Shown here: positions 3,751 through 38,609 of the stretch, one piece after another
How positions within the stretch are numbered: the stretch's first letter is position 1
How the letters are laid out: each line of letters starts with the position of its first letter
IMG/VR virus record: IMGVR_UViG_3300027826_000003
Span: 1-38,609 of that record
From: a virus
Length of the DNA: 38,609 nt
Reading direction: 5' to 3' (one strand)
Program-made: the position numbers and the translations under genes
Notes under the pieces: generated by a model
What the model saw: the letters and a program-made list of their open reading frames with translations, nothing else
Databases searched by the model: none
What the model was told of the DNA's origin: nothing

Positions 3751-3776
3751 GTTCTATGGTCCTTACGGGAGATCCC

Positions 3777-4055
3777 ATGTCGCTCTACCTGGTGATGCTG
3801 CTCGCCGGCCTGGTCGGCGGCCTCGTCTTCGCGATGCTCGGCCGCTGGGTCGCCGACCAGAAACACCGCGACCCGAACGAGGGCGCCTTGCTCGGCTTCC
3901 TCCTCGGGCCGTTCGGCGTCCTGGTCGAGCTGCTCTTACCGACGAAGGAAGCGCCGAAGCGAAAGGCGGTCCGTCGCCTCGATCGATCGGGCTGGCAACC
4001 GCCGCGTGATGAGGCGTTCGACCAGGAAGCGGCCAACTGGATCACGCGAAACTGA
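3777..4055 (+). CDS. Small two-TM membrane protein encoded against the tail operon (moron-like).
   Basis: ATG at 3777 follows GGGAGA (3766-3771). The product is MSLYLVMLLAGLVGGLVFAMLGRW...LLGFLLGPFGVLVELLLP..., 92 aa with very high GC3. It lies 26 nt from the divergent GTG start at 3750, and its 3' end overlaps the 3' end of 4042..5025 by 14 nt. Confidence 0.6.
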   Translation: MSLYLVMLLAGLVGGLVFAMLGRWVADQKHRDPNEGALLGFLLGPFGVLVELLLPTKEAPKRKAVRRLDRSGWQPPRDEAFDQEAANWITRN

Positions 4056-5048: not shown

Positions 5049-5561
5049 TTAAGTCGGCTGAACGGTGTTCACGATGCGCAGGTAAAAACGGCCCTCGCCG
5101 TACATGGTTCCTTCGGGGCTCGCTTCCGGCCGGGGTGCGATGCCGGGCGCGCCGAAAACGATTTCCCCCGTCTCGGCGCCGACCGCGGCCAGGTCGAGCC
5201 CGAACGACGTCCCGCCGCCGACCGAGGGACCATTCGGGAGCAATGCGCTTCGCAGCACTCCCCAGAGGTCCGTCACGTCATCGACGCACGTCGAGCTGAT
5301 CCCGAGCTCGACCTTGACCCAGAGCGTTTCCACGGCCGCGTCCGGGCTGTACCAGTCCTCGTCGACGGGGTTCGGCGTGAGGCGCACGACCGGGGCGTTC
5401 GCGCTCGGCGCAAACGGGCTCTTGTCGGCCGTCACGCCCTCCCACGATCGGAGGTTCGGCCCGACGAGCCGTTTCACGGTCGGGTCGTTTTTGAGCTGCT
5501 GAACGATCCGGCGAAAGACCTTCGTCTGGTTCGTCTCGGGTGTCTTCAGGCTTTTCCCCAC
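5049..5561 (-). CDS. Hypothetical virion protein, possibly a head-tail joining or tail-terminator type.
   Basis: 170-aa ORF with a GTG start 7 nt after GGGGAGG. Its position directly upstream of the tube-like gene supports the call. High GC3. Confidence 0.55.
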   Translation of the reverse strand: MGKSLKTPETNQTKVFRRIVQQLKNDPTVKRLVGPNLRSWEGVTADKSPFAPSANAPVVRLTPNPVDEDWYSPDAAVETLWVKVELGISSTCVDDVTDLWGVLRSALLPNGPSVGGGTSFGLDLAAVGAETGEIVFGAPGIAPRPEASPEGTMYGEGRFYLRIVNTVQPT

Positions 5562-5562
5562 G

Positions 5563-10795: not shown

Positions 10796-11947
10796 TTACT
10801 GCGTGCAGAGCAGCGAGACGAGCCGCTTCGAATTCTCGGCCGCGACGAAGACGTCGTGGAGCAAGAGACCGCGGACGGCGTTCGCGAACGTCGTCTGCAG
10901 GCGAAGCGCCTCGATTTCGGTAATCTGCGCGGCGTAGCTGATCGCCTCGTTGTCGCCGAACAAGAGGTACTTGTTGCCGCCGCTTCGGGGAACGTGCGGC
11001 GTCTCGTACACCGCGAATCCGGCGACCATCCCGACGAAGCCGGGGGCCTCGGCCGCGGTGCGAGCGACTTCCTCGCCGCCGACCAGGCCGTACTGGACGA
11101 CCTTGTCGCCGAGCTCGCCGGCGCGCACGAAGTGCTCGGTATCCTGCAAGAGCAGACCCGTGGTGTCCGGGTCGACGATCGCCCACCGGCTCCCGGTCGT
11201 CGCCGGCACGTTGGCTTTCGAGAGGATCGACCGCGCCTGGACGAACTGCGGGTAAATGTCCGTGTTGGTCACGGTCGTACCCGTCGAGGTCGTCAGCGTC
11301 AGCGCGCTCGCGGTCGTCAGCACGACGTAGGGTGCGACGGTGTAGTTATTGCCGCCGGCCGTGATCGTGACGGTGTTGATTGCGCCGCCGGAGACGGTGC
11401 ACGTCGCGGTCGCGCCGTTGCCCGTGCCGCCGACGAACTGGATCACCGGGGCGGTGGTGTAGCCGCTGCCGCCGGAGTTGATCGTGACCGAGGTCACGGC
11501 CCCGCCGGAGATGACGGCCGTCAGGCTCGCGCCGGTGCCGGCGGTCGGAGCGCCGAGGGCGACGCCGGCCGACGAGTAGGCCGAGAGAAGCTTGGCCTCG
11601 ACCGTGTTGTTCATCGCGACGACGGCCCGCTTCATGTAGACGTCCATCGCGTTGACGTCCGACTGCGCCTTGTCGAGGTCGTCGACCTCGAACGCGAAAT
11701 ACTCGCCGTCGCTGACGGTGAAGCTTTCCTTCGTCGGCGTGAGGTCCTGGTAGCTGATCGTCGCTCCACGGGAATAGCTCCCCATGGAGATGTTGCCGGC
11801 GGTGCGGACCCACACCGTCTTGTTCTGACGGAGGTCGCCCTCCCAGTTGCGATTGACCAGGGGCAACATGACGTTGATCTGGTCGAGCTTGGTCACGAGC
11901 CGTTCGGACCACGCTTCTGAATTGAAAGCGGCCAGGTTGTTTGCCAC
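10796..11947 (-). CDS. Major capsid protein (HK97-fold, P22-coat-like N-terminus) with two inserted ~35-aa repeat modules.
   Basis: 383 aa with a GTG start 7 nt after AGGAGG. It lies immediately downstream of the scaffold-like gene. The N-terminus reads NLAAFNSEAWSERLVTKL..VNRNWEGDL..KTVWV. The inserted modules are at aa 135-210 (11318..11545). Confidence 0.8.
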   Translation of the reverse strand: MANNLAAFNSEAWSERLVTKLDQINVMLPLVNRNWEGDLRQNKTVWVRTAGNISMGSYSRGATISYQDLTPTKESFTVSDGEYFAFEVDDLDKAQSDVNAMDVYMKRAVVAMNNTVEAKLLSAYSSAGVALGAPTAGTGASLTAVISGGAVTSVTINSGGSGYTTAPVIQFVGGTGNGATATCTVSGGAINTVTITAGGNNYTVAPYVVLTTASALTLTTSTGTTVTNTDIYPQFVQARSILSKANVPATTGSRWAIVDPDTTGLLLQDTEHFVRAGELGDKVVQYGLVGGEEVARTAAEAPGFVGMVAGFAVYETPHVPRSGGNKYLLFGDNEAISYAAQITEIEALRLQTTFANAVRGLLLHDVFVAAENSKRLVSLLCTQ

Positions 11948-17308: not shown

Positions 17309-17560
17309 TCAATCCCCCGTCATTCGATCCCGCCACCCGGAATCCCACGGCCACATTCGTTCGGCGGTCCATCGCGCGAGGTTCGCGACCGCTTCGTCGG
17401 GCGTCCTGCCGCTATGCCAGATGCCGCCGTCGTGCGGACCGATGCGCGCGATCCAGAAGCCGAGCGGCCGTTCGAATCGCTCGACCCGGATCACGTTCGC
17501 GAGCGGGATCTCATCGGCCACGGTCGGCGCTCGGCTTTCGGCTTGGCGATCGGGGATCAT
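17309..17560 (-). CDS. HicB/UPF0150-like small protein (tentative).
   Basis: 83 aa. ..IRVERFERPLGFWIARIGPHDGGIWHSGRTPDEAVANLARW.. follows the HicB N-domain pattern (x-V-x-I-E..G-x-Y-x-A..P..G..-G-x-T-x-E-E-A..N). High GC3. No obvious SD before ATG 17560. Confidence 0.45.
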   Translation of the reverse strand: MIPDRQAESRAPTVADEIPLANVIRVERFERPLGFWIARIGPHDGGIWHSGRTPDEAVANLARWTAERMWPWDSGWRDRMTGD

Positions 17561-17571
17561 TGGCGTAAGTT
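17543..17571 (+). promoter_or_regulatory. Sigma-70-like promoter for the embedded plus-strand gene.
   Basis: TTGGCG (17543-17548), a 17-nt spacer, then TAAGTT (17566-17571). The strong SD AAAGGAGGG follows at 17581-17589. Confidence 0.4.
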
Positions 17572-17593
17572 GTGCGTCAGAAAGGAGGGCGTT

Positions 17594-17824
17594 ATGCCCG
17601 CTACTTGGTCTGTCGAGAATGTCGCGACCGACTCTCAGGTGCGGATCTGCTACGGCGATCTCTGCACCGAAATGCCGTACTCTCAGGCGACGAAATTCGC
17701 CCAGCGCATCCTCGGGTTCACCGGGAGCCTTCCGCCGAACGGCCGAACGGCCGGCGCGACGAGCCGAAGCATGAAGGCCGCCGGCGGGAAGAAGGGCGGG
17801 AAGCGCGGCGGTAAGGCGTGCTGA
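17594..17824 (+). CDS. Small 76-aa protein with a Lys/Gly-rich basic tail, encoded against the late operon (moron-like).
   Basis: ATG 17594 follows AAAGGAGGG by 4 nt. The product is MPATWSVENVATDSQVRICYGDLCTEMPYSQATKFAQRILGF...KAAGGKKGGKRGGKAC. GC3 is mostly G/C. It has its own promoter-like element and a downstream hairpin. Confidence 0.6.
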   Translation: MPATWSVENVATDSQVRICYGDLCTEMPYSQATKFAQRILGFTGSLPPNGRTAGATSRSMKAAGGKKGGKRGGKAC

Positions 17825-17836
17825 CAGGTGTCACCG

Positions 17837-17871
17837 CGCCGTCCGTCGCCGACCACGGGCGACGGACGGCG
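17837..17871. terminator. Perfect 14-bp hairpin between convergent genes. It has no U-tract on either strand.
   Basis: cgccgtccgtcgcc-gaccacg-ggcgacggacggcg lies between the stop at 17824 (+) and the stop at 17880 (-). Confidence 0.45.
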
Positions 17872-17879
17872 CTCGAACG

Positions 17880-18533
17880 TTAGAAGTTTTGCGCGACGGT
17901 CGCGTAGAACGTCGTCGCCGTGATCGCGCGGAGCGTGACGATATCGGCCTTTGCAGCGGTCGTCGTGAGCGTCGGTGCGCTGCCGCCGGACCACTTGATT
18001 CCGCTGAACCACGTCACGGTACGCGAGCCCGTCCCGTCCTGGACCAGCGTCAGCTCGATCTTTTGACCGGGCGTCACGTTCGCCAGCGCGAGCGTCCGGT
18101 TTCCCGCGAGCGTCACGGTGTGGCGGTTGCTGACGCTGCAATCAAACGTGATCGTCGATCCGTCGGTATCGACCACGAGCGGCTCGTACGAGCTGTTGAT
18201 CCCCAGGAGGTTCGCCGTCCCTCCTGTCGCGAGCACGACGCTTTCGGGGAATTGCAGCACGTCGCCGGCGTTCACATTCGCGTCGACGTAGCCGGCCGGG
18301 GCGGTCGAGCTGACGGTCAGCGTCTGCGCCGACCAGGCCGTCACGTTCAGCGCCGTGATGAGCGCGCCCGAGCGAAGCACGAGCGCGTTGCAAGGGAACG
18401 AGAAGTCGCCCGACGGTCCGCAGTTGACCGATACGCTGGTGCCGCCGCTCGAACGGGCGGCGGTGACGATCGGCTGGGCGTGGATCACGTCTTCGTGAAC
18501 TTGAGTTGCCAAGGTCAGGTCTCCGTGCCCCAC
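17880..18533 (-). CDS. Beta-rich virion protein (hypothetical) immediately downstream of the portal gene.
   Basis: 217-aa ORF. The GTG 18533 start overlaps the portal end. An alternative TTG at 18512 lies 7 nt after GGAGA. Confidence 0.6.
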   Translation of the reverse strand: MGHGDLTLATQVHEDVIHAQPIVTAARSSGGTSVSVNCGPSGDFSFPCNALVLRSGALITALNVTAWSAQTLTVSSTAPAGYVDANVNAGDVLQFPESVVLATGGTANLLGINSSYEPLVVDTDGSTITFDCSVSNRHTVTLAGNRTLALANVTPGQKIELTLVQDGTGSRTVTWFSGIKWSGGSAPTLTTTAAKADIVTLRAITATTFYATVAQNF

Positions 18534-20248: not shown

Positions 20249-20674
20249 TTATCCGATCGCCGGAAGGTCGTATCGAGTGAGACCGTCGTACATGCGCTCG
20301 AGAGCCGCGACGCAGCGCTCGAGCGAGTGCGTCAGCACGCGGCCGAGGACGTCGCCGATCGGCCCGTTCGAGTCGAGCTGCTCGACCGCGCTCGAGTAGA
20401 GGTCGATCGGCGCGAGCACGACGTGGTAGAGCTCGTGCCGGAGGGTCCGGAGGACGTCGGCCTCGCTGTCGAACGCGTCGGGGTTGAGCACGATGTGCGC
20501 CGACTGGTAATCGACGAGCCGGCTGCACTCGCCGCGCGTGGTGTTATCGCTGTCGTCGCCGCGGCCGAGGCCGGGATCGTAGCTCACGCTCAGCTCCCAC
20601 GAGCCAAGGCCGAGCTGCCGCGAGAGGTGCGGAAGATGATCAATCACGACACGCTCGACGACCGATCGATCCAT
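20249..20674 (-). CDS. SprT-like / zincin HExxH metallopeptidase-domain protein.
   Basis: 141 aa. ..GSWELSVSY...RGECSRLVDYQSAHIVLNPDAF.SEADVLRTLRHELYHVV.. matches the SprT-like layout (W-x-v..G-x-c....I-x-L-n......L-x-HE-x-x-H). Confidence 0.5.
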   Translation of the reverse strand: MDRSVVERVVIDHLPHLSRQLGLGSWELSVSYDPGLGRGDDSDNTTRGECSRLVDYQSAHIVLNPDAFDSEADVLRTLRHELYHVVLAPIDLYSSAVEQLDSNGPIGDVLGRVLTHSLERCVAALERMYDGLTRYDLPAIG

Positions 20675-21099: not shown

Positions 21100-22653
21100 T
21101 CACTCCGAAAAGGTGAACGTCATCAACAGCGCGTCGAGAAGGTCGGGCGATCGGTGCAACCGAGCGGCCAGGTCCTCCTTGTTTTCGAGGACCTGCTTTA
21201 CCTGGCCCTCTTCCATCTCCATCGTCGGGGCCCGGAGCTCGCCGAGCTCCTGGCGCAGTGCCGGCCACTCCGGGTGCCCGCCGCAGTAGAACGGCACATG
21301 GCCCTCGCGGTGCGGGTCGAGCCGGGCGCGAAGCGCGAAGGCGTTCGCGGTCCGGCGATTGACGAAGAGCTTGCCCCCCTTGCCGGCGCCGAAATAGCCG
21401 ATCGCGCCGTCGAACGCTCGCGGCTGCGTCCGCTCGACCCAGCTCGCGGGCTGGTCTACGTGCTGGGCGCGGTAGGCGGTGATTCGCCGCTGGGCCTCGG
21501 CGGCCAGGTAGCTGCCGAACGATCTGCCGATCCCGGCCTTGTCGTACACGAGGTGATCGGCAGTGACGCCGAACTTGCTGGCGAGGTCGAGTACCAGAGG
21601 TTCAAGCCGGTGCTTCGCGTCGTCGAGCACGCCGTGCCACTCCGAGGCGATGAGTGCGAGCAGCCGCTTGCGATCGCGCACGACCACGACGCTACGATCA
21701 GCGCCGACGCCGCCGCCGACGTCGACGCCCATGAACGCCGGCCCGGCCGGGTATTCGCGCCAGAGGTCATCATCGAGGATCGTCTCCCGGGTGCACGCGT
21801 CGACCCAAGCGGAGGGAATGAACCGGACCGTCTCGGCGCCGGGGAACTGGCCGAGGATGTTCGACTTCCACCACGGCGATTCCTCGCCGTGAATCGTCCT
21901 CATCTGATGCAAAAACGACCGCGAGACGGCGCCGATCGGCGAGTAGTCGAGCTGCGCGTGCGGGTGATCGAGACAGGAGATCGGGACGGTGTTGATCGCG
22001 TCCGCGCCCTTCGCGGCGATGTCGTGGAGCTCGCGAAAGTGGCAGTCGTACCGGATCGGGTTGCCGCACACGACGAGCCGCGTCGCCGCGAGTCCGTGGA
22101 TCGCGGTCCAGATATCGGCGTGCACGCCCGAGGCCTCGTCGACGATCACGAGCAGCTCGCCGGCGTGCTGGCCCGAAAACCCTTCGCTCGACTGCGCCGC
22201 GAAGCCCAGCGCTCCCCAGTCGCCTTTCGACCGGACCGTGAGCCGCTGGGGTGACGAGTAGCCTTGCGTCAAGTGGTCGTAACCAAGTCGGGCACGGCTC
22301 GCACGGATCGCCCGCCGGATCTCTTTCCAGAGGACGCTAACAACCTGGCGGTGATCGGGGCCCGTCGTGATGACGAGCGAGTTGGGCCGCGTGTAGAGCC
22401 ACCAGAGGACGACCCCGGCGAGCAAGTAGCTCTTGCCGACCGCCCGGCCCGCGGGGACGACGGTCGTCGGGTACCGAACGATCGAGTCGCAGACGGCGGC
22501 CTGCTTATTCCAGAGGCGCCGGCCGAGGATCCTCTCCTGAAACTCGACCGGTCTCCACTTCAGGTGCTCGAGGACCTTCCGGGCCGGCGGCTCCGTCGGC
22601 TTCGGCGCCGGCTTCGGCTTCGATTTCGGCGAGCAGCTCGGGCCAGGCGTCAC
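21100..22653 (-). CDS. terL: Terminase large subunit.
   Basis: Walker A is VVPAGRAVGKS and Walker B is ELLVIVDEAS. The C-terminal nuclease-like region reads FMGVDVGGGVGADRSVVVV. The track start (GTG 22653) overlaps terS by 149 nt, so the true start is uncertain. Confidence 0.9.
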   Translation of the reverse strand: MTPGPSCSPKSKPKPAPKPTEPPARKVLEHLKWRPVEFQERILGRRLWNKQAAVCDSIVRYPTTVVPAGRAVGKSYLLAGVVLWWLYTRPNSLVITTGPDHRQVVSVLWKEIRRAIRASRARLGYDHLTQGYSSPQRLTVRSKGDWGALGFAAQSSEGFSGQHAGELLVIVDEASGVHADIWTAIHGLAATRLVVCGNPIRYDCHFRELHDIAAKGADAINTVPISCLDHPHAQLDYSPIGAVSRSFLHQMRTIHGEESPWWKSNILGQFPGAETVRFIPSAWVDACTRETILDDDLWREYPAGPAFMGVDVGGGVGADRSVVVVRDRKRLLALIASEWHGVLDDAKHRLEPLVLDLASKFGVTADHLVYDKAGIGRSFGSYLAAEAQRRITAYRAQHVDQPASWVERTQPRAFDGAIGYFGAGKGGKLFVNRRTANAFALRARLDPHREGHVPFYCGGHPEWPALRQELGELRAPTMEMEEGQVKQVLENKEDLAARLHRSPDLLDALLMTFTFSE

Positions 22654-23005
22654 GCGCTTCGGGCTCCGTCGGTTTTTCGGGTCGATCGAGGCCGAGCAAT
22701 TTGCGTTCGTCCGCCATCGCGCCGCGGATCTCTTTCAGCAAGCGAGCGTCGGCGCCGTCCTCTTGCAGCTCCCAGGCGCCGGCGAGCTGGTCGATGATCC
22801 ACTCCAGCCGGGCGAGCTGCCGCCCGCGAGCGGCCGCGGTGCGGCGGGCGAGACGGTCCAGGGTCCGCTCATTAACGCGCGCCAGCGCTCGGCTAACCGA
22901 GCTCTGATGGACGCCCAGTTGCTCGGCAATTCGAAGCTGCGTCCAGCAACGGGCCTGAAGCCGGACGGCCTCGGCGAGCTGCTCGGGTGTGAGGTGCGCG
23001 GCCAC
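22505..23005 (-). CDS. terS: Terminase small subunit (HTH).
   Basis: 166 aa with a GTG start after AGGGAGG. The N-terminal HTH is WTQLRIAEQLGVHQSSVSRALARV, followed by an acidic C-terminal half. It lies directly upstream of terL. Confidence 0.65.
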   Translation of the reverse strand: MAAHLTPEQLAEAVRLQARCWTQLRIAEQLGVHQSSVSRALARVNERTLDRLARRTAAARGRQLARLEWIIDQLAGAWELQEDGADARLLKEIRGAMADERKLLGLDRPEKPTEPEARDAWPELLAEIEAEAGAEADGAAGPEGPRAPEVETGRVSGEDPRPAPLE

Positions 23006-23038: not shown

Positions 23039-23305
23039 TCAATTCTGCCCGTCGAGCTTCGGCATGCGCAAGGTCGAGCAGCAACCGAGCCGGGCCCGGT
23101 GTTCGGCCTCGGCGTGGCGGCGCTGCTGCGCACCGCGGGCCCATGCGTTCGCCGCTCCGATCAACGATCCGAGGCCGGCGAGGATCGCCGGCACGAGCTC
23201 CCACCGCGGCCCGTAGCGCGCGACCTGGTCCAAAACCCAGAACCCGGCGACCGCCGCGTTCGCGCCGAAAATCGCGCCGTCGTGGTGATGGGAGAGGTGT
23301 ACCAT
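23039..23305 (-). CDS. Holin-like membrane protein with two TM segments and a basic C-terminus.
   Basis: 88 aa. The hydrophobic segments are AIFGANAAVAGFWVL and LVPAILAGLGSLIGAANAW, followed by RGAQQRRHAEAEHRAR... Confidence 0.55.
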   Translation of the reverse strand: MVHLSHHHDGAIFGANAAVAGFWVLDQVARYGPRWELVPAILAGLGSLIGAANAWARGAQQRRHAEAEHRARLGCCSTLRMPKLDGQN

Positions 23306-23316
23306 CGTCGCTCAGA

Positions 23317-23481
23317 TCACTTCGCCGGCGGCCCGCTGTTCGCCGCTTGCCCGATCCCGAACGCAGCCGCGAACGCGGTCGACGCGCCGACCAGATCGCC
23401 CGTCGTGAGGTGGTAGATCGCGAGGCCGACCAGGCCGACCGACGCGAGGTAGGATCCGATTGTGGCGGGGGAGAGGATCAC
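23317..23481 (-). CDS. Small 54-aa membrane protein (holin/antiholin-like), not listed as its own ORF.
   Basis: GTG 23481 lies in a GTGA overlap with the metzincin stop. The product is VILSPATIGSYLASVGLVGLAIYHLTTGDLVGASTAFAAAFGIGQAANSGPPAK. This is the only protein-like part of the otherwise Arg-rich 374-aa track ORF. Confidence 0.5.
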   Translation of the reverse strand: MILSPATIGSYLASVGLVGLAIYHLTTGDLVGASTAFAAAFGIGQAANSGPPAK

Positions 23482-24101
23482 GAGATTCTCCGGACAAAGA
23501 CCTGGTAATCTCCCGGCGACGCGAAATCGAGCTCGAGCCCGATCGGCCCCGGTGTGAGGACGTGAAGCGTGGTTGCCGGCGCGTCGACCGGCGGTGCGGC
23601 GGGCGGGTATCGGAGCTGGGCCTGCTCGACGTCCCATTGCTGCGGGCCGACCAGGTCCGGGTTGTAGATCGGCGCCATCACCGCGACGACGGCGGCCGGC
23701 GAGTGCTCGAGGCCGAGCGCGTGCCCGAACTCGTGCATCGCGACCTGCGCCAGCTCCTCGTCGGTCCACTGGTCGTCGAGGTTCAGGCGCAGGAGCAATT
23801 GCGGCTCGCCGGCCGGGAGATCCGTGAGGCCGAGCTCGACGCCGCTCGGGTCGAGCGCGGTGAACACCGCGACGACCTTCGCCGCGGTCGGGTCCTCGGT
23901 CGATTCGATCGCGACTCCGCAGACGGCCGACCACACGGCGATGCCGGCGCCGATGGCGCCCGCGGCGGTGTCGCGGGTCATCCCGGCCGGAAGGGGAGAG
24001 GTCGGCGCGAGGCACCACGTCACGACGGTTCCCGGCGGCCAGGCGTAGAGCCGGGCCGAGTCGGCGAGCGCGGGCCGCGCACAGCGGGCGCTTGGACGCA
24101 T
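23478..24101 (-). CDS. Matrixin-type metzincin zinc metalloprotease (peptidase M10-like catalytic domain only).
   Basis: HEFGHALGLEH (HExxHxxGxxH) is followed by a Met-turn, VMAPIY. Upstream matrixin-like segments are VTWCLAP, AIGAGIAVWSAV and LNLDDQWTDEE. ATG 24101 lies 8 nt after AGGAG. Confidence 0.85.
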   Translation of the reverse strand: MRPSARCARPALADSARLYAWPPGTVVTWCLAPTSPLPAGMTRDTAAGAIGAGIAVWSAVCGVAIESTEDPTAAKVVAVFTALDPSGVELGLTDLPAGEPQLLLRLNLDDQWTDEELAQVAMHEFGHALGLEHSPAAVVAVMAPIYNPDLVGPQQWDVEQAQLRYPPAAPPVDAPATTLHVLTPGPIGLELDFASPGDYQVFVRRIS

Positions 24102-24104
24102 CAA

Positions 24105-24635
24105 TCAGGCTCCTGCTCGTGCTCGGGTCGATCGGACGCTCTCGAACGCGCGGGCGAGTCGATCGCGCACGCAGCTCCGCGAGAAGCCGACCGACTTCGC
24201 GAGCGCGGTGAGCGTGTCGTGCTCGAGAAAGAGGTAGATCAATGCCCGGCTTGTCGGGGGGAACTGGTCGATGAGCGCGTGGATCTTCCGCCCGTCCTCG
24301 TCCTCGTCGTAACAGCTCGGGTCGACGAGATAGAGCTGGTGATCGCGCGTGATCGGCGTCTCGTGCTCGCGGCGCCTCTGTTCGCGGCGGTACTCGGTCC
24401 GCAGCGCATAGATGATCCGCAGCGTCGCATACGTGCCCCACGATGCCCCGCGATTAGCGCGATAGTCCTGTGCCGCGCGGCAGAGCTCGAGGTACGCGAC
24501 GCACCGGTAATCGTCGGCGAGCCCGCGGTGCGCGCGGCCGAACGGTCGCGCGAGCGAATTCGCGAGCGGCACGTACCGGTCGGCCAGCGCGCGCTCGGCG
24601 GCCGTCATCTCTCGGGTCGGTTTTGCGGGGGGCAT
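24105..24635 (-). CDS. Sigma-70 family factor with regions 2 and 4 only (ECF-like).
   Basis: Region 2 is ADDYRCVAYLELCRAAQDYRANRGASWGTYATLRIIYALRTEYRRE. The region 4 HTH is PPTSRALIYLFLEHDTLTALAKSVGFSRSCVRDRLARAFESV. 176 aa. Confidence 0.8.
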   Translation of the reverse strand: MPPAKPTREMTAAERALADRYVPLANSLARPFGRAHRGLADDYRCVAYLELCRAAQDYRANRGASWGTYATLRIIYALRTEYRREQRRREHETPITRDHQLYLVDPSCYDEDEDGRKIHALIDQFPPTSRALIYLFLEHDTLTALAKSVGFSRSCVRDRLARAFESVRSTRARAGA

Positions 24636-24975: not shown

Positions 24976-25578
24976 TCAGCGCCGGAAGAGCAGGCTCCGG
25001 ATCCCCGAGGCCGGGGCCTGCGGACTCGCCATCACCGGTTGTGGGGCCGGTGCTGGCGGTGCTTGCACTTGATAGACGACGACGGCCTGGGGCGTCGGCT
25101 TCGACGCCGGCGGTACGACGACGTGGTCGTACCCGACCCGGGCCAGTCGATCGCCGAGTGCGCCGATCGCGCGGCGCATCGGGCCAGCCGGCCGCAGCTC
25201 GGCCGCAACGGGGGCCGGTGCCGGCGCCGGCGGGGCAGTGGTCGCGCTGGCCCCGCTCGTCGTGACGTGGAGCTGGATCGTCTGGGGCGGCGCCGGCGCG
25301 GCCGGTGGTACGGCGATGTGGATCACGGCCGAGGTCGGCGCCGCGGGGGTTGTCGGCGGCGCCAGCTCGGCCTCGTGCGGTTGCTGGATCGGTCGGAGGT
25401 CGTATTGCTGGACCGGGCCGACGTAGGGACTCGCTTTGACCGCGGCTTGCGGCGACGGTTTCGGAGGCGGCGGGCCGACGCCGCCGTCGTCGGCGCGCAC
25501 GACCAGGCTCAGGACCGCGACCAGCGCGGCCCCCGCGATGAGCCAGAGGAGACCACGACTCCACCGCAAAGACGTCAT
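24976..25578 (-). CDS. N-terminally anchored proline-rich membrane or exported protein.
   Basis: ATG 25578. The N-terminus MTSLRWSRGLLWLIAGAALVAVLSLVV acts as a signal-anchor. The rest is about 170 aa of Pro/Ala-rich sequence (PPPPKPSPQAAV.., APPAPAPAPVAAE.., APPAPAPQPV..). Confidence 0.6.
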   Translation of the reverse strand: MTSLRWSRGLLWLIAGAALVAVLSLVVRADDGGVGPPPPKPSPQAAVKASPYVGPVQQYDLRPIQQPHEAELAPPTTPAAPTSAVIHIAVPPAAPAPPQTIQLHVTTSGASATTAPPAPAPAPVAAELRPAGPMRRAIGALGDRLARVGYDHVVVPPASKPTPQAVVVYQVQAPPAPAPQPVMASPQAPASGIRSLLFRR

Positions 25579-25638
25579 ATCCCCACCCCCTATCGAGCTC
25601 GGCGTACAGCAGCGCAACGCCAAACCCTACCACACCTT

Positions 25639-26051: not shown

Positions 26052-26078
26052 TTATCGGCCGGGGTCTCCCCTGCCGAT
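26052..26078 (-). terminator. Motif copy 2, which is also a terminator-like hairpin abutting the stop of the XRE gene.
   Basis: TTATCGGCCGGGGTCTCCCCTGCCGAT folds with ATCGGC/GCCGAT and GGGG/CCCC stems. The minus-strand tail AACACTTTGG is a weak U-tract. Confidence 0.4.
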
Positions 26079-26305
26079 CAATCGAGGTCGCTCCACTGGC
26101 GGCCGAGCGCGGCGAGCACGCGAGCGACGGTCTCGATCGAGGGATTGCGACGGATGCCGAGCAACACCTGCGAGAGCTGCGAGCGGCTCATGCCGGCCTC
26201 GGCCGCGATCGCGGCGACCGAGCGGCCGTCGTGCTCGACCAGGTCGCGGAGCTGGTCGAGCGCGTCGGGGGCGTGGGGGGCGGATTTGGTGCTGCGGGTG
26301 GGCAT
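26078..26305 (-). CDS. XRE/Cro-CI family HTH regulator, a candidate prophage repressor.
   Basis: 75 aa. ..SVAAIAAEAGMSRSQLSQVLLGIRRNPSIETVARVLAALG.. is a typical HTH_3 domain. Confidence 0.85.
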   Translation of the reverse strand: MPTRSTKSAPHAPDALDQLRDLVEHDGRSVAAIAAEAGMSRSQLSQVLLGIRRNPSIETVARVLAALGRQWSDLD

Positions 26306-26807: not shown

Positions 26808-26849
26808 AGTATAGCGATCGCTAACGCAGTGTCAAGCGATCGATAACGC
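26808..26849 (-). promoter_or_regulatory. Near-consensus sigma-70 promoter with a duplicated operator-like motif.
   Basis: On the minus strand: TTGACA (26835..26830), a 16-nt spacer, then TATACT (26813..26808). The perfect palindrome TAGCGATCGCTA lies in the spacer. The direct repeat AGCGATCG(C/A)TAACGC occurs at 26813..26827 and 26835..26849. Confidence 0.55.
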
Positions 26850-28051: not shown

Positions 28052-28108
28052 TGCATTGTGCTCCGTTTGGTGCCCCGTCGGCCGGTTCAGCGGCCGGCGG
28101 GGTTTTTT
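28051..28108 (+). ncRNA. Candidate ~58-nt cis-antisense sRNA with a ~20-nt single-stranded 5' region and an intrinsic terminator.
   Basis: The terminator is ccccgtcggccg-gttcag-cggccggcgggg (12 bp including one G-U pair, 28073..28102) followed by TTTTTT (28103..28108). No plus-strand gene lies upstream to terminate. The 5' part, ttgcattgtgctccgtttggtg, is complementary to the SD and start region of 27737..28051. Confidence 0.4.
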
Positions 28109-28144
28109 CGTGCGCTCGCGGCGACGTGCCCGAGCGACACGAGC

Positions 28145-28172
28145 ATCATACGTTGTACGTACAGAGTGTCAA
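28145..28172 (-). promoter_or_regulatory. Leftward early promoter (PL-like) with a palindromic operator in the spacer.
   Basis: On the minus strand: TTGACA (28172..28167), a 16-nt spacer, then TATGAT (28150..28145). The perfect palindrome TGTACGTACA (28154..28163) lies in the spacer. Confidence 0.55.
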
Positions 28173-28201
28173 TAGGGTGGTACAAATTTTCTAGCGGAGT
28201 C

Positions 28202-28230
28202 TTGCCGGTCGTGTACGCCCGGCGTATGAT
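28202..28230 (+). promoter_or_regulatory. Rightward early promoter 1.
   Basis: TTGCCG (28202-28207), a 17-nt spacer containing GTGTAC, then TATGAT (28225-28230). Confidence 0.45.
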
Positions 28231-28246
28231 CGATATCAGTACAGCG

Positions 28247-28275
28247 TTGGCCGCCCGTTTGAGGCGTGCTATGAT
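28247..28275 (+). promoter_or_regulatory. Rightward early promoter 2.
   Basis: TTGGCC (28247-28252), a 17-nt spacer, then TATGAT (28270-28275). It lies about 30 nt upstream of the RHH gene. Confidence 0.45.
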
Positions 28276-28303
28276 CCGCGCTGCGTTGCGGACTGGAGGA
28301 CTG

Positions 28304-28516
28304 ATGGACGGTACGGCGGTGGGACTGATGGCGAATCCGAAAAAGGCGCGGGCTCTCGCTGACAAGACGGTCGCGTTTCGCGTGTCGAGGGCCTATTCCA
28401 AATGGCTCGACGAGCTCGCGAAACGCAACCGGACGTCCATCTCCGCGCTGCTCGACCAGGCGTTGACCGAGTATGCGAAGTCGATCGGCTTCGAAAAGGA
28501 GGCGCCGGAGCGGTGA
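28304..28516 (+). CDS. Ribbon-helix-helix (Arc/CopG-like) regulator, Cro-like by position.
   Basis: ..KTVAFRVSRAYSKWLDELAKRNRTSISALLDQALTEYAK.. shows the beta-strand plus two helices of an RHH fold. ATG 28304 follows GGAGGA. An alternative ATG at 28328 exists. The track ORF (28058) extends implausibly far upstream through the promoters. Confidence 0.7.
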   Translation: MDGTAVGLMANPKKARALADKTVAFRVSRAYSKWLDELAKRNRTSISALLDQALTEYAKSIGFEKEAPER

Positions 28517-30036: not shown

Positions 30037-30090
30037 TAACCGATCATCGAAGCGGCGTAGCGTCGGACCGCGCCTGCGACAGGACACGGA

Positions 30091-30142
<52 letters not shown>

Positions 30143-30162
30143 ATTTCAGGCCCCCAAGGGCA

Positions 30163-30205: not shown

Positions 30206-30282
30206 CCCCGCAAAAACAAGGGTCGTTCGAAGCGCACAATTTCGGGGTTCCGCCCTTAACTCTTTTGACGAGGAGACAGGCA

Positions 30283-31227
30283 ATGCCGCCCGTCACCTTT
30301 GCGCGCTTCGAACGGGAGATCCTCGATCTGTACCGGCCGCCCCAACGGCGCAAGGCCACGCTCGCCAAGATGGCGAAGGTTCTCGACGAGATTCACGAGC
30401 TCGGCGTGCGCCGCACGTCCGACCTCACGCCAGGCACCATTGTGCGCTGGCTGGCCGCGCATGCCGAGCGCCGGCCGGCGACGAACCGGTCATATCTCGG
30501 CTCGCTCCGCGCGGCCGTCAACATCGGCCGGAAGCTCGGGTATCTCCGGGTGAGTCCGTGGGATGTCCGGTCCGACTGGATCCCGCTCGACGTCGAGGAC
30601 GACGCGGTACCGACCGTCCGGCGTCATCTCACGCTCGACGAGGTCGGCCTGGTGCTCGACCAGGCCGACGCCGAGGCGATCGCCGGGAGCTGGCCCGCGG
30701 GCCGGCTTCAGGCGCTGGTCTACACGTACGCGTTCACCGGTCTCCGGAAGGCCGAGGCGCTGGGGCTCCTCGTCGCCGACCTGAACCTCGCCGGCCGGTA
30801 TCTCGAGGTCCGCGGCCGGCGCAGCCGCCGGCTGAAGACCAGGTCCTCGCGCCGGAGGGTGGCAATCCATCCGGAGCTGGCCGTGATTCTCTCGCGCTGG
30901 ATCTCACGGACCGGTTCCGAATGGCTCTTTCCTACCCTCCGGCGCGAAGGCCCGTGGCTTCACGGCCCGAACGGCGGGAAAGCGCTCGACCAGGTCAAGG
31001 CGCTCTGCATGCGGTGCGGGATCGAGGGCGTGACGATCCAGGCGTTCCGCCGCTCGCTCGCGACGCACGCCCGGCGGTTCGGTCTCGGCCCGCTCGAGGT
31101 CCGCGATCTGCTCGGCCACACGAGCGAGCGTACCCAGGAGTGGTATCTCGAGGACGACCTCGAAGATCAGCGGGCCGCGGTCGGGAAGATCGCGTACCGT
31201 CCCGCCGCGTCCGCCGCCCGTCTCTGA
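30283..31227 (+). CDS. int: Tyrosine integrase.
   Basis: ATG 30283 follows GAGGAGA. The recombinase motifs are AFTGLRKAEALGL (Arg I), IQAFRRSLATH (box II Arg) and LLGHTSERTQEWYL (His and Tyr nucleophile). It is adjacent to the tRNA fragment. Confidence 0.9.
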   Translation: MPPVTFARFEREILDLYRPPQRRKATLAKMAKVLDEIHELGVRRTSDLTPGTIVRWLAAHAERRPATNRSYLGSLRAAVNIGRKLGYLRVSPWDVRSDWIPLDVEDDAVPTVRRHLTLDEVGLVLDQADAEAIAGSWPAGRLQALVYTYAFTGLRKAEALGLLVADLNLAGRYLEVRGRRSRRLKTRSSRRRVAIHPELAVILSRWISRTGSEWLFPTLRREGPWLHGPNGGKALDQVKALCMRCGIEGVTIQAFRRSLATHARRFGLGPLEVRDLLGHTSERTQEWYLEDDLEDQRAAVGKIAYRPAASAARL

Positions 31228-35636: not shown

Positions 35637-38192
35637 TCACTCGCCGTCGTCTTCCCCGCCCATCTCGCCGCCGAGCTGACGCCGGCCGGCGGTGGGTCCC
35701 TCGCTCGGCGCGCCGAAGCCGAGGCCGAACGCGGCGGCCGGCGCCGACGAGAACACCGCCGGCGCCTCCGCGATCCCGAACGGCTGCCCCACGATCGACG
35801 GCCGCTGCAGCGCCGCGCCGCTGAACGGTGCCCGACGGTTCGAGAACGTCAGCGTCGTCACGTACGACGTCGCGCCCGACCGCTCGCGGTACTCGAGGTC
35901 GACCGCGATCACCGGCACGTCGAACGAGTCCCATCCGGTGCTATACGTGCTGCCGGTGATCGAAAGTTTGTGCCCGATCAGGAGCGACGACGCGAGGAGC
36001 CCAAAGTAAGGGATCGAGCCCTCGTACACGACGTCCTTGACCGAGTCCAAAAACTCGGCCGCGAACGTGGTCATATTCGTGGCGTTCGACCCGTCCCGCC
36101 AGTCGTTGCAGGAAATCACCTTGGTGCGTTGAATCCCGAGCGCGCTGTACGACGTGCCGGCGTAGCCGCTCGACGGCTGCACGACACTGAGCGCGCCCGT
36201 GTGGACCGGCACGAACGCCTGAAAGTCATTCACCGGCGCCGGCGTCACGCCATCGACCGAGAAGACGAGCGCCGTCGGCCGGGCCGTGAGCACCGTCCCG
36301 CTCTCCGGGTCGACCGCGACGCCGATGTAGCTCTGCTGATAGGGTGCCATACCGAGCGGCGAATAAAACACCGTCCCCGCCGGCGTGCTCGTGAGCGTCG
36401 CCGCGGTGCCGTCCGAGTTCCGGAACGCGACCGGGTACGGGAAATAGTTCGCAAGCTGCGCCGCGATCGCGGCGTTCGTCACCTTGTACCGTCGGTAGAC
36501 GTAGCTCGCGCCGCCGGCGGTGCCATAGATTTGATACGACGTGTAAGAGGTCGTCGGCGCCGGCGTGTCGAGCGTGAGCGTCGACGTCCCGCCGGCCGAG
36601 AGCGCCGTGTTCGACACGATCCGCGCGGTGAAATACTGCGTGTAGGCGCTGATCGCGTCCTGACGGAGCACGATCACGCCCTGGTGCCCAGTCGGCGAGT
36701 AATCCCAGTAGTCGGAGACCCACTGGGCCTTGGTGTTTTGCGACTGCACCGTGACCTGCGTCGTCGACGGCATCGTCGTGATGGTGCCGAGGTCCGACTG
36801 GCCGACCGCCGGGCCCGTGAGCGTCACGGTCGGCGAGCTGCTGTAGCTCGAGCCGCCGGCCGTGACCGTGATGCCCGTCACGGCCCCGCCGGAGATCGTC
36901 GCCGTCGCCGTCGCGCCGGAGCCTGTCGCGTCCGTGATCTGCACCGTCGGCGCGGCGGTGTAATTGTAGCCGCTGATAATGACGGCGATCGATGCGATCG
37001 AGCCGCTCGAGACCGTGGCCTGCGCCGTCGCCGTGCCCTGGCTCTGGGTCGGCGTGGTGAAGTCGCTGGCCTGCCACTGGGATTTGGCCTGCGCGTTGGT
37101 GAGGCCGTCGTGGGCGAAGTCCTCCGAGAGCCCTCCGTCGGCGTCGCCGGAGCCCGGCCACGGCTTGAGCGAGAGCGTCACGGGCACGACCAGGTCGTGC
37201 CCCCGGATCTCACACCGCGAGTAACAGCTCGACCAGTCGGCCGTCACGCTCGGCCGCCCGACGCGCGGGTCTGATCCGTCCATCGTCAGCGTGATATCGG
37301 CCGACCAGGTCCGCGGGTCGTGAAACCGGATGTTCCCCTGCGGGTCGACCTGGACGAAGTGGTTCGGGTGGCACGATTGCACGACGCCCTCGAGCGACTG
37401 CAAGATCCGCTCGCCCTGGACGTCGATTTCAAACGGCGGAATTATCGTGAGCGCCGCGAGGTCCGTGAGCGTCGCGCTCGGCAGCGTCGAGAGGATCACG
37501 ATCGGGGCCGTCGTGTACCCGGAGCCGCCGGAGCCGAGCGTGATTCCCGTCACGGCGCCGCCGCTGACGGTCGCGGTCGCGGTCGCGCCCGATCCCCCGC
37601 CTCCGGCCAGGAGCACCGTCGGAGCGACCGCATAAGACGAGCCGCCGGCGACGATGGTAAACGAGCTCTGGACGACGCCGCCGGAGATCGTGCACGTCGC
37701 CTCGGCGCCGGTGCCGGCGCTCGAGTAATTGCCGATCCCGACGGCCGAGAGCGCGACCTTGTTCTGGCTCATCTCGAGCACGTCGGCGACGATCTGCCCC
37801 ATCGTCCGGCCGGCGCGACTCGCGATGAAGTCCGGGTCGTCCGATGCGACATTGAAGCGGGCGGTGTCCGTGAGCGTGTTCGAGTCCGTCATCGGGATGT
37901 ACTCGGCCCGCTTCGCGAGGCCGTAGCACGTCCACTCCCGGACCCACCCCAGGTGATCGTCATAGTGCGTCAGGTGCGAGCCCGTGTCGCCGCTGAAGAT
38001 CAGCGTACCGTCCTGCGTGAGCGTCACGGGCTGCGCGTCCCACGGGTCGGGGCCCGACGTCAGCGCGCCGATCGACCGCGCGAACGACAACATCGGGTAG
38101 CCGTCCTTGGCATACGGCCGGCACGTCAGGAGCGTCGTCCGGGTCGCGACGCGGTCGATCGTGGTCGAGTTGATGACGAGGACGGCGCTCAA
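35637..38192 (-). CDS. 851-aa distal tail / baseplate-hub-like protein carrying four copies of the shared repeat module.
   Basis: The TTG start lies in a TTGA overlap with the tape-measure-like stop. The repeat modules are at 37491..37715 and 36813..37025. It is the last gene of the late operon. Confidence 0.75.
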   Translation of the reverse strand: MSAVLVINSTTIDRVATRTTLLTCRPYAKDGYPMLSFARSIGALTSGPDPWDAQPVTLTQDGTLIFSGDTGSHLTHYDDHLGWVREWTCYGLAKRAEYIPMTDSNTLTDTARFNVASDDPDFIASRAGRTMGQIVADVLEMSQNKVALSAVGIGNYSSAGTGAEATCTISGGVVQSSFTIVAGGSSYAVAPTVLLAGGGGSGATATATVSGGAVTGITLGSGGSGYTTAPIVILSTLPSATLTDLAALTIIPPFEIDVQGERILQSLEGVVQSCHPNHFVQVDPQGNIRFHDPRTWSADITLTMDGSDPRVGRPSVTADWSSCYSRCEIRGHDLVVPVTLSLKPWPGSGDADGGLSEDFAHDGLTNAQAKSQWQASDFTTPTQSQGTATAQATVSSGSIASIAVIISGYNYTAAPTVQITDATGSGATATATISGGAVTGITVTAGGSSYSSSPTVTLTGPAVGQSDLGTITTMPSTTQVTVQSQNTKAQWVSDYWDYSPTGHQGVIVLRQDAISAYTQYFTARIVSNTALSAGGTSTLTLDTPAPTTSYTSYQIYGTAGGASYVYRRYKVTNAAIAAQLANYFPYPVAFRNSDGTAATLTSTPAGTVFYSPLGMAPYQQSYIGVAVDPESGTVLTARPTALVFSVDGVTPAPVNDFQAFVPVHTGALSVVQPSSGYAGTSYSALGIQRTKVISCNDWRDGSNATNMTTFAAEFLDSVKDVVYEGSIPYFGLLASSLLIGHKLSITGSTYSTGWDSFDVPVIAVDLEYRERSGATSYVTTLTFSNRRAPFSGAALQRPSIVGQPFGIAEAPAVFSSAPAAAFGLGFGAPSEGPTAGRRQLGGEMGGEDDGE

Positions 38193-38609
38193 TTCGGGCC
38201 CCCATTCAGTAAGGCGGTCGGCCCTTGCTCGTCGGCTCGACGGGCGAGCCGTGCGCCATTTTGCTGAAGGCGCCGGGCGTTGCCCTCGACCTTCGCGAGC
38301 CGCGCCATCACGCGCGCGAGCGCCTCTTGCGTCGCCGCCATCGCCTGCTGGGTCGCCTCGACGCCGGTCACGCCCTGCGCCTGCGCCGTGGCGATTTCAT
38401 CCTGGAAACCGCGCCGGCCCTGCGAGGCGATCCGGGTCGCCAGGAGGTTCGTCTGCTCTTCGCTCATGCCGGCGTTCGCCCGCACGACGCGGCCGCGCCG
38501 GTCGCGGCCGACGGGGCGATTCAAAAACTGCAACGCCTGCTGAGTCGTGAAGTCAAACGCCTGGTCGGCCGTCGCGCCCTGGGCACGGGCCTGCGAGTAG
38601 ATCGCTGCG
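38189..38609 (-). CDS. C-terminal part of the tape-measure-like protein. It is the same gene as 1..2037, and 38483..38609 duplicates 1..127.
   Basis: The frame stays open from the window end down to TGA at 38189..38191. The sequence ..ADQAFDFTTQQALQFLNRPVGRDRRGRVVRANAGMSEEQTNLL... is identical across the overlap to the reverse translation of 1..127. Confidence 0.75.
   Translation of the reverse strand, partial: AAIYSQARAQGATADQAFDFTTQQALQFLNRPVGRDRRGRVVRANAGMSEEQTNLLATRIASQGRRGFQDEIATAQAQGVTGVEATQQAMAATQEALARVMARLAKVEGNARRLQQNGARLARRADEQGPTALLNGGPN
38483..38609. repeat. Terminal direct repeat, copy B (identical to 1..127).
   Basis: See copy A. Confidence 0.95.

Follow-up and report, generated by a model that had tools for sequence, protein, structure and literature searches.

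Can a phage lyse its host with a proteinase related to the matrix metalloproteinases (MMPs)? This question is raised by a three-gene locus at positions 23039-24101 (-) of IMG/VR virus record IMGVR_UViG_3300027826_000003, whose whole stretch of 38,609 nucleotides (nt) was analysed and is called the window here. The locus encodes a protease of 207 amino acids (aa) and two small membrane proteins of 54 and 88 aa. On balance, it reads as a lysis cassette in which a matrixin protease, released by a holin, would act as the equivalent of an endolysin. This reading is preferred because the protease has intact and invariant catalytic residues on a true MMP fold, because the complete genome shows no canonical lysin, because the cassette genes are tightly coupled on one strand, and because the 88-aa gene is fixed before the terminase and the slot upstream of it alternates between an M10 and a papain-fold enzyme. 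A preliminary description of the window had put forward a protease-based lysis cassette as a candidate, which is now supported by synteny, protease replacement, missing signal peptides and a lambda-like gene order.

The protease gene (23478-24101, -) starts with an ATG at 24101, one codon downstream of a TTG at 24104. Its product carries the zinc motif HEXXHXXGXXH in the form HEFGHALGLEH (residues 123-133), followed by the Met-turn methionine M142. Reverse-complementing the DNA placed the zinc motif at 23703-23735 and Met142 at 23676-23678, which verified the complete metzincin signature given in the preliminary description. H123, E124, H127, H133 and M142 are invariant across 9 family sequences. 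The profile search and the structure prediction that had been suggested as checks both agreed with this signature. The Pfam hidden Markov model (HMM) PF00413 (Peptidase_M10) matched the protein over profile positions 6-150 of 159 with E=1.1e-10 and a score of 42 bits, where the gathering cutoff is 24, and a profile of the protease family matched MMP-11 (E=4e-13) and MMP-1 (E=2e-12) in PDB. Only M10 and other metzincin families matched the protease in Pfam, and the number of PHROG matches was zero. When the AlphaFold2 (AF2) model of the protease (predicted local distance difference test, pLDDT, 83.5; predicted template-modelling score, pTM, 0.74) was searched with Foldseek, MMP-1, -3, -10, -11 and -13 and the bacterial protease karilysin were found with E of about 1e-8 and target-normalised template-modelling (TM) scores of 0.70-0.78, and the top 50 PDB matches were all MMPs or karilysin with a probability of 1.0. 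Judged from the predicted structure, this match is far beyond chance, and it assigns to the protein the catalytic-domain fold of MMPs, with a five-stranded sheet and three helices.

The matrixin (M10A-like) catalytic domain covers residues ~21-165 (23607-24041, -), as delimited by Pfam, the PDB profile and Foldseek. It has no histidine between residues 60 and 115, its S-loop is shortened to ALDPSGVELGLTDLP, and the structural-zinc histidines of the MMP S-loop are absent. Sequence and predicted fold make it a solid conclusion that the protease is a genuine matrixin, best termed a minimal matrixin-like member, since the structural zinc and calcium ligands of the S-loop, a feature of vertebrate MMPs, are lacking. 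The preliminary description had taken the protein for the catalytic domain alone. This has to be corrected, as an N-terminal leader of ~20 aa and a C-terminal extension of ~40 aa are also present. According to the family alignment the extension comprises ~40-42 aa after a Pro-rich linker (23481-23606, -); it is kept in one M10 branch and is replaced by a helical extension in a branch without leader. In the AF2 model it has a pLDDT of 65-85 and no secondary structure assigned by DSSP, and it could be a targeting domain. Two other identities were considered and rejected. Membership in the ImmA/IrrE (M78) proteases is ruled out by the absent Peptidase_M78/DUF955 match, by the matrixin fold and by the upstream neighbour, which is sigma-like and not of the XRE type. 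A prohead protease role was discarded because the gene lies outside the head module and two related loci (L116 and L002) encode a separate Peptidase_S78.

A word-indexed search returned only seven relatives of the protease. In an exhaustive HMMER search, 44 M10 clusters passed the threshold of E<=1e-30, and E<=1e-10 was reached by 1,114 generic M10 proteins. The close relatives are all metagenomic, and no similar M10 protein was present in 50,697 deposited GenBank phage genomes (INPHARED) or in 72,556 plasmids (PLSDB). The N-terminal leader was surveyed in the 44 full-length close M10 relatives at E<=1e-30. In the window protease it has 20 residues, MRPSARCARPALADSARLYA (24042-24101, -; Cys7 codon 24081-24083), and contains the cysteine-switch-like motif RC7ARPALAD. 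A leader of 10-33 residues with a cysteine occurs in 34/44 relatives, with motifs such as RCAHPE.LA, WCGVPDH, HCGVPEA and FCNLPEH, to be compared with PRCG(V/N)PD of the MMP switch; WCGVPDH and HCGVPEA come close to the canonical form. Between the motif and the conserved (R)WPxGT, with which the catalytic domain starts, there are 13-17 residues, a spacing that is also found in pro-MMP-1. Two of the 44 have a leader without cysteine, and eight are leaderless and have a helical C-terminal extension instead. A signal peptide, judged from the hydropathy of the N-terminus, was seen in 0/44.

The full MMP prodomain of ~80 aa is absent from the window protease, and the full architecture of PG_binding_1 prodomain plus M10 domain is present in more distant relatives. 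The phage type thus looks like a pro-MMP whose prodomain was trimmed down to the switch peptide. DSSP assigns isolated beta-bridges in the AF2 model to residue 6 and to residue 145, just after the Met-turn; this pair fits a leader lying in the active-site cleft, at a low model confidence, as the pLDDT of the leader is only 46-56. From its motif and spacing, the leader is a putative minimal cysteine-switch propeptide rather than a signal peptide. Since 34/44 relatives carry a switch-like leader and none a signal peptide, the enzyme may be a zymogen that is kept latent in the cytoplasm. To our knowledge, this minimal pro-MMP is the smallest known cysteine-switch zymogen architecture. The leaderless branch (P0007, P0186, P0197, P0198 and P0207; loci L002 8507-9319, L006 3944-4804 and L119 6033-6896) starts at MGRWPxG. 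Its C-terminal helical extension measures 100-200 aa and includes a hydrophobic helix, and its loci are also without the 54-aa gene, which suggests another way of enzyme control or targeting.

The protease gene is directly joined to the first membrane-protein gene. Its stop codon overlaps the GTG start of the 54-aa open reading frame (ORF) in the sequence GTGA at 23478-23481, an overlap that had been reported and is hereby located, and a GGAG lies ~7 nt upstream of this start. The 54-aa protein (TM54 family; 23317-23481, -) has one clear and one weaker hydrophobic segment, with family mean hydropathy peaks of 1.5 and 0.6. Its homologues adjoin the M10 or the 88-aa gene in L001, L004, L009, L011, L123 and, frameshifted, L008. 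There was no match in Pfam or NCBIfam, and in PHROGs only a weak one to a family of unknown function (phrog_21126, E=0.025). The protein is a candidate holin partner or antiholin.

The gene for the 88-aa protein (TM88 family; 23039-23305, -) starts 11 nt past the 54-aa stop. In the protein, a helix of weak hydrophobicity is followed by a turn with the invariant motif RxGPxWxxxP, by a strong transmembrane segment (~residues 35-55) and by a C-terminal tail with DGAQxRRHxExH. Its family consists of 39 clusters, and the mean Kyte-Doolittle peaks are 2.0 for the strong transmembrane segment and 0.9 for the weak helix. Two hydrophobic segments had been ascribed to the 54-aa protein and two transmembrane helices to the 88-aa protein; in each protein one transmembrane segment is robust, and the second segment is weaker and Gly/Ala-rich, so that a pair of helices is only partly secure. 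Likewise, the "highly basic" C-terminus ascribed to the 88-aa protein was overstated, as the tail is rich in charges of both signs (family median +7/-4 in 29 residues). No holin model in Pfam, PHROGs or NCBIfam matched. The 88-aa gene is the last gene of the cassette and stands immediately upstream of terS/terL at every locus with context. Because of its size, topology, charged tail and position, the 88-aa protein is regarded as a candidate holin. Both small proteins agree with the generic description of a holin (<150 aa, at least one transmembrane segment, charged hydrophilic C-terminus). If they are holins, they form a new family.

The gene order around the protease is conserved. Wherever context exists, a small sigma-r4 or helix-turn-helix (HTH) gene is followed by M10, the small membrane proteins, terS and terL; the upstream HTH or sigma-r4 gene was found in L001, L002, L004, L005, L006, L009 and L119. 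The block of M10, small membrane proteins and terminase occurs in at least 10 distinct loci, so the conservation upstream of terS that was to be looked for does exist. In the window, the cassette lies on one strand and is tight, with the GTGA overlap and then spacers of 11 nt and 33 nt, and no minus-strand terminator was found between 26800 and 22500. The gene that follows the 88-aa gene (22505-23005, -) encodes a terS-like small terminase candidate of 166 aa with an N-terminal HTH (HTH_23 and Sigma70_r4_2-type HTH matches). It is 64% identical to an ORF of L004 that precedes a Terminase_6N/Terminase_3 gene. Its candidate assignment as terS rests on position, and it marks the downstream border of the cassette. 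The large terminase subunit gene terL comes next (21100-22653, -; phrog_2 'terminase large subunit', E=8e-25), so that a terS candidate stands where terS had been announced. TerL is ~30% identical to annotated phage terminases (tblastn) and ~30% identical to Bacillus and Clostridioides elements (PLSDB plasmids). On the other side of the cassette, 3 nt separate the protease ATG from the stop of a gene (24105-24635, -) for a sigma-70-family protein of 176 aa with regions 2 and 4. This protein matched Sigma70_r2 (E=3.6e-5) and Sigma70_r4 (E=5.6e-4) in Pfam and PHROG 351 'RNA polymerase sigma factor' (E=2.6e-8), and it is likely a late-gene regulator.

All loci that carry the 88-aa family were classified with local HMMs according to the gene in the slot upstream of the 88-aa gene. 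This slot is occupied by M10 at 10 distinct loci (window, L001, L002, L004, L006, L011, L116, L119, L121 and L131), by a papain/cathepsin-fold protease at 5 distinct loci (L010, L117/L127, L125, L128 and L129), and by no catalytic domain at 2 loci (L008 and L009). No canonical lysin was seen in the slot among these loci. The fixed position next to this membrane protein is thus filled by one or the other of two unrelated classical proteinases. In mosaic phage genomes, endolysin slots typically show such exchanges of non-orthologous genes. The M10 cassette was found with at least four terminase/portal types (Terminase_6N+6C, Terminase_3, Terminase_4+TerL_ATPase and DUF5681+Terminase_6N), and so behaves like a mobile module. 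Many mosaic genes are common to the window and the M10-type loci; with the cysteine-protease loci, the window shares only the 88-aa family (~40% identity).

The second slot enzyme was identified by its fold. The 295-aa protein of L117 (4758-5645) and the 518-aa protein of L010 gave no sequence match in Pfam, PHROGs, NCBIfam or PDB, and their family has 375 relatives. AF2 run on a 32-sequence alignment of this family gave a model with a pLDDT of 89.7 and a pTM of 0.90, for which Foldseek found xylellain (3e-9) and the cathepsins B, L, S and K (probability 1.0). Gln62, Cys67, His215 and the tryptophan of (Q)SWG are invariant in the family. According to this model the enzyme has the two-lobed papain/cathepsin (C1) fold and is not a CHAP or NlpC/P60 protein. 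None of the 83 short forms of this cysteine protease has a hydrophobic segment, and 6/8 long forms have an N-terminal transmembrane anchor. By analogy, this split mirrors that between soluble and signal-anchored endolysins and points to an action beyond the cytoplasmic membrane. Two members of the family, P0066 and P0078, carry inteins (Hint_2, Intein_splicing and Hom_end_hint); inteins are unusual for a lysis enzyme and hint at a gene under strong conservation.

The papain-fold family also gives a view on the host. Its named members all belong to Planctomycetota, namely Singulisphaera acidiphila DSM 18658 (chromosome, AGA28405.1), Singulisphaera sp. PoT (WP_422932069.1) and a Phycisphaerales metagenome-assembled genome. 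The M10 cassette of L011 lies in another metagenome-assembled genome, GCA_040384185.1 (contig JAWVGY010002546.1). The family has prophage copies in Singulisphaera chromosomes, and a 93%-identical copy is located on a 10.9-Mb replicon. Neither the 88-aa protein nor the cysteine protease had a PLSDB plasmid match, and the cysteine protease had none in INPHARED phages. Since the protease of the sister cassette has these Singulisphaera prophage copies, and the 88-aa family is shared, the host of the window phage is probably also a planctomycete, an assignment by association. An M10 profile scan of the GTDB species genomes found distant M10 genes only (<=35% identity), none of them near the membrane-protein families. 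A prepilin-motif protein on the L001 contig was considered as a host marker and rejected, as phage genes flank it and it has no Planctomycetes-Verrucomicrobia-Chlamydiae (PVC)-specific H-X9-DG tail. Planctomycete walls have long been described as protein-dominated (PMC12673574), and planctomycetes have lysozyme-sensitive peptidoglycan of the diaminopimelic acid type (PMC4432640). The suggestion that the host envelope depends on protein is therefore supported in one part, by the sister cassette in Singulisphaera prophages, and opposed in another, by this lysozyme-sensitive peptidoglycan.

The search for another lysin could be made on a whole genome. Both ends of the window carry an exact terminal direct repeat of 127 bp (1-127 = 38483-38609), and so the window is a complete, circularly assembled genome of ~38,482 bp. 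About 40 ORFs were chosen by GC content at third codon positions (GC3), and Pfam and PHROGs were run on every one. No lysozyme/glycoside hydrolase, transglycosylase, amidase, CHAP, NlpC/P60, M15 or M23 domain was found among them. Most of the ORFs are orphans without a Pfam or PHROGs family match, and a phmmer search of the concatenated orphans (4,890 residues) against all PDB sequences gave 0 matches at E<=0.1. PHROG 'tail lysozyme' matches of the 1693-aa protein, the 851-aa protein and the capsid protein were rejected as a hidden lysin, because they fall on a shared Ig-like repeat. The early statement that the genome has no other lysin thus holds for Pfam, PHROGs and the PDB phmmer search. 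The relative L001 has no lysin domain in ~38 kb of its 44-kb contig either, and the precomputed Pfam tables of the relatives are free of muralytic domains for 6-10 kb around the cassette. As for the protease itself, no M15, M23, CHAP or NlpC match in Pfam places it in a recognised muralytic class. Its context is endolysin-like: it adjoins holin-like genes, is translationally coupled to them and lacks a signal peptide.

From this context we infer how the cassette would function, including holin activity, timing, activation and substrate. The sigma factor, the protease, the 54-aa and 88-aa proteins, terS and terL are laid out as a single operon, which would be expressed late. The protease would gather in the cytoplasm, where the Cys7 thiolate of the ~20-residue leader may cap the catalytic zinc. 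The 88-aa protein, alone or together with the 54-aa protein, would serve as the holin or as a holin/antiholin pair and permeabilise the membrane at a set time. A holin would be needed for export because the enzymes have no signal peptides. Release into the more oxidising periplasm would remove the thiol cap and open the switch, and the freed enzyme would cut a peptide-bonded, load-bearing component of the envelope, resulting in cell lysis. The stem peptides and cross-links of peptidoglycan, or envelope and tethering proteins, are the substrate candidates.

Several points weigh against this reading. We know of no matrixin that cleaves stem peptides containing D-amino acids. No curated holin family matches the 54-aa or the 88-aa protein, and each of them has just one strongly hydrophobic transmembrane segment. 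The placement of the leader in the active site is poorly modelled (pLDDT 46-56). L005 has the M10 gene and no detectable 88-aa gene, and in L008 (at about 5400-6000) and L009 the 54-aa and 88-aa genes are present without an M10 catalytic domain. Both of these loci were assembled from long reads prone to indels, and they may represent prophages in decay; alternatively, they are evidence that the protease is dispensable. In L009 a stand-alone ORF of 61 aa (5594-5779) matches the M10 profile in the C-terminal extension only. Because most ORFs of the genome are orphans, they could conceal a muralytic enzyme of a new type (the fold of one orphan was modelled). Finally, the lysozyme sensitivity of planctomycete peptidoglycan (PMC4432640) means that a protease is not obviously sufficient for lysis.

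The last two points lead to the alternative that survives best, which is nevertheless unlikely. The protease, set free by the holin, would be an accessory factor that removes envelope proteins in a last step, comparable to spanins or disruptins, and a hidden orphan enzyme would cut the peptidoglycan; its targets would be the tethers between outer membrane and wall or a protein-rich outer layer. Lysis of Gram-negative bacteria needs three steps, and no recognisable spanin is present in the window. MMP and papain folds degrade proteins, and the many ORFs without family match leave room for another enzyme. The peptidoglycan itself is real in planctomycetes (PMC4432640), and the metzincin system Mtz/Tim of Listeria makes cells more sensitive to holin-lysin and does not take the place of the lysin (PMC8235301). 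The absence of a muralytic domain in three libraries over the complete genome, and in the ~38 kb of L001, stands against such a hidden enzyme, and the protease occupies the position beside holin-like genes that is usual for the endolysin.

A quite improbable alternative is that the protease works in the cytoplasm, as a regulatory or host-takeover enzyme of the ImmA/IrrE kind that cleaves a repressor, an anti-sigma factor or host proteins together with its sigma/HTH neighbour, and that the small membrane proteins are functionally separate. HEXXH proteases beside HTH regulators are a known theme of prophages. The missing signal peptide would be explained in this way, and a sigma-70-like or HTH gene is found immediately upstream in every locus. 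The types of this upstream regulator vary, however, whereas the downstream membrane protein is constant, and the translational coupling through GTGA is to the membrane proteins. The fold is that of a matrixin and not of M78, the cysteine-switch leader implies latency in a reducing cytoplasm, where the enzyme would then be of no use, and the papain-fold protease that takes the slot in sister phages is membrane-anchored in its long forms.

The least probable alternative, which the preliminary description had also named for receptors and superinfection, is a moron for lysogenic conversion or exclusion whose product is exported against receptors (superinfection), competitors or extracellular substrates. 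It can point to the extracellular action of karilysin and insect-virus MMPs and to distant relatives with a PG_binding_1 prodomain like that of secreted pro-MMPs, but 44/44 close relatives have no signal peptide, the gene lies inside the late operon between regulator and terminase without a promoter or terminator of its own, and its position and coupling to membrane proteins are conserved across mosaic genomes, unlike those of typical morons.

If the protease is the equivalent of an endolysin, it would be the first matrixin of this kind, with a papain C1 enzyme as its sister. Such a lysin would be kept harmless by a cysteine switch of 10-30 residues, and not by tethering through a signal-arrest-release (SAR) domain or by compartmentation alone. 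A wider proposal is offered more tentatively and is rather doubtful: in phages that infect Planctomycetota, and perhaps also in those of related soil bacteria, muralytic endolysins may have been replaced by proteinases, either a mini-MMP kept latent by a cysteine switch or a cathepsin/papain-like enzyme, that act through a new holin family. Two new endolysin classes would then be added, one of them with a redox-switched zymogen. If proteinases did replace endolysins, the load-bearing and rate-limiting element of the envelope at lysis would be held by ordinary peptide bonds, that is, by envelope proteins or by an unusual peptide-rich wall. The old question of the 'proteinaceous' planctomycete wall would then be reopened from the phage side. 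The make-up of this envelope, protein-dominated or peptidoglycan, was for decades a matter of dispute, and the natural substrate of the enzyme would show what holds the cell together. The centenary review of Planctomycetota from 2025 mentions phages once (PMC12673574), and the cassette offers a genetic and biochemical entry to the nearly unstudied biology of planctomycete phages. Its enzymes could also be of use as reagents for breaking open bacteria that notoriously resist lysis.

The genome has a GC content of 68% and belongs to a temperate phage of the siphovirus-like type. Among its structural genes, those for capsid protein, portal and tail tube were detected, and a tape-measure-like coiled-coil ORF on the minus strand crosses the junction of the circle, from ~2034 through position 1 (= 38483) to 38189. 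A tyrosine integrase gene (30265-31227, +) is directly adjoined by a tRNA-Arg(ACG)-like element (30088-30162, -). The element is a probable attP, and the phage would then integrate in a host tRNA-Arg gene; no tRNA-Arg was present in the 22 relative loci compared. Four near-consensus sigma-70 promoters (11/12 matches) were found in the switch region, against 0.4 expected from shuffles. They lie in divergent arrangement at 26808-26835 (-), 28145-28172 (-) and 28202-28275 (+). An Arc/RHH-like (ribbon-helix-helix) gene (28058-28516, +) lies next to them, and a Cro-like HTH gene (26078-26305, -) is located downstream. This region is likely the lysis/lysogeny switch.

Upstream of the sigma gene, a 215-aa protein (24976-25623, -) has an N-terminal transmembrane anchor and a long Pro/Ala-rich region. 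It had no family match in Pfam, PHROGs or NCBIfam, and a homologue exists in L001. Its architecture recalls TonB or spanins, and it is possibly a lysis accessory that spans the envelope or periplasm, with an uncertain membership in the cassette. Proteins with a transmembrane anchor and a Pro/Ala-rich region recur near both cassette types (L117 5645-6055, L010 4155-4800 and L009 3401-4330), and in L010 the stretch forms the N-terminus of the 518-aa cysteine-protease-family protein.

Other observations concern single genes. A 141-aa orphan ORF between terL and portal (20249-20674, -) contains LRHELYHVV, an HEXXH motif of its own; its sole PHROG match, to a family of unknown function, is weak, and the protein could be a second, unrelated mini-zincin. 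The Ig-like repeat is common to the major capsid protein (10796-11947), the 1693-aa protein (5563-10644) and the 851-aa protein (35637-38192), all on the minus strand, and these three match the same PHROG families (460, 701, 708, 19630 and others). An Ig-like domain thus appears to be inserted in the capsid protein. The tail module is interrupted by an oppositely oriented gene (3732-4055, +) for a membrane protein of 107 aa, possibly a moron or superinfection-exclusion gene. In the closest long relative, L115 (IMGVR_UViG_3300037258_000330), a 368-aa protein (17401-18507, -) has a prepilin-type N-methylation motif (Pfam N_methyl) and phage genes on either side, and it appears to be a phage-encoded pseudopilin-like protein.

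Among known proteins, the MMPs and karilysin of Tannerella forsythia (PDB 2xs4 and 4r3v) share the fold, the HEXXHXXGXXH motif and the Met-turn with the window protease. In the window protease, a serine follows the third histidine of the zinc motif, and the leader cysteine of the family sits in a PRCGxPD-like context, as in MMPs. Unlike MMPs, the window protease has no signal peptide, no PG_binding_1-type prodomain of ~80 aa, no hemopexin domain and no S-loop histidines. Karilysin, too, is a minimal MMP, its propeptide having no more than 14 residues, and 4r3v, which contains this propeptide and the catalytic domain, gave the highest query-normalised TM score (0.64). The switch residue of karilysin is reportedly Asp, where the phage family has Cys. 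Karilysin is the nearest bacterial analogue, and the window protease differs from it and from MMPs in being phage-encoded, in standing beside holin-like genes and in having the extra C-terminal domain of ~40 aa. The best viral structural neighbours are MMPs of insect viruses (granulovirus, ascovirus, entomopoxvirus, iridovirus and hytrosavirus), with Foldseek E of 5e-10 to 1e-6 in BFVD and an identity of 14-23%. Baculovirus MMPs act late, break a proteinaceous host barrier and aid virus release, and in this respect the insect-virus enzymes are also an analogy in function. The insect-virus enzymes differ in that they belong to eukaryotic viruses, are secreted, target basement membrane or tissue and are found outside holin cassettes.

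A phage-derived metzincin has been connected with lysis before. Mtz/Tim of Listeria monocytogenes consists of a phage-remnant metzincin and a TIMP-like lipoprotein, enhances lysis by holin and lysin and alters the wall (PMC8235301). Like the window protease, Mtz has HEXXHXXGXXH/D and a Met-turn (PMC8235301). It differs by its Sec signal peptide, by the TIMP-like lipoprotein as substrate partner and by the CI/Cro switch in a chromosomal remnant; it works beside a normal endolysin in a Gram-positive host and has no holin or terminase linkage (PMC8235301). No sequence relationship between the window protease and Mtz was detected. As a precedent for a phage-derived metzincin that promotes lysis, Mtz/Tim supports the reading of the window protease as an endolysin-equivalent. 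In the literature, no metzincin endolysin was found, Mtz/Tim is the sole published link between a phage metzincin and lysis, and phages go unmentioned in a 2025 paper on MMP genes that were transferred horizontally.

Peptidase endolysins of the M15/VanY, M23 LytM-type, CHAP and NlpC/P60 classes likewise cut peptide bonds, commonly have no signal peptide and depend on a holin. They use the LAS fold (HxxxD...HxH) or the small NlpC/CHAP fold on stem peptides with D-amino acids, whereas the window enzyme is a metzincin. With the lambdoid cassettes (Q, S, R and Rz/Rz1, then Nu1/A) the window cassette shares the logic of a regulator, an enzyme with small membrane proteins that have charged C-terminal tails, terS and terL, closely packed on one strand. 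Unlike in lambdoid phages, the enzyme is a matrixin instead of a transglycosylase, lysozyme or amidase, and its gene comes before those of the membrane proteins. A spanin pair cannot be recognised, and none of the described holin families includes the membrane proteins. The layout of the cassette is therefore of a known kind, and what would be new in it are the class of the lysis enzyme and the holin-like family.

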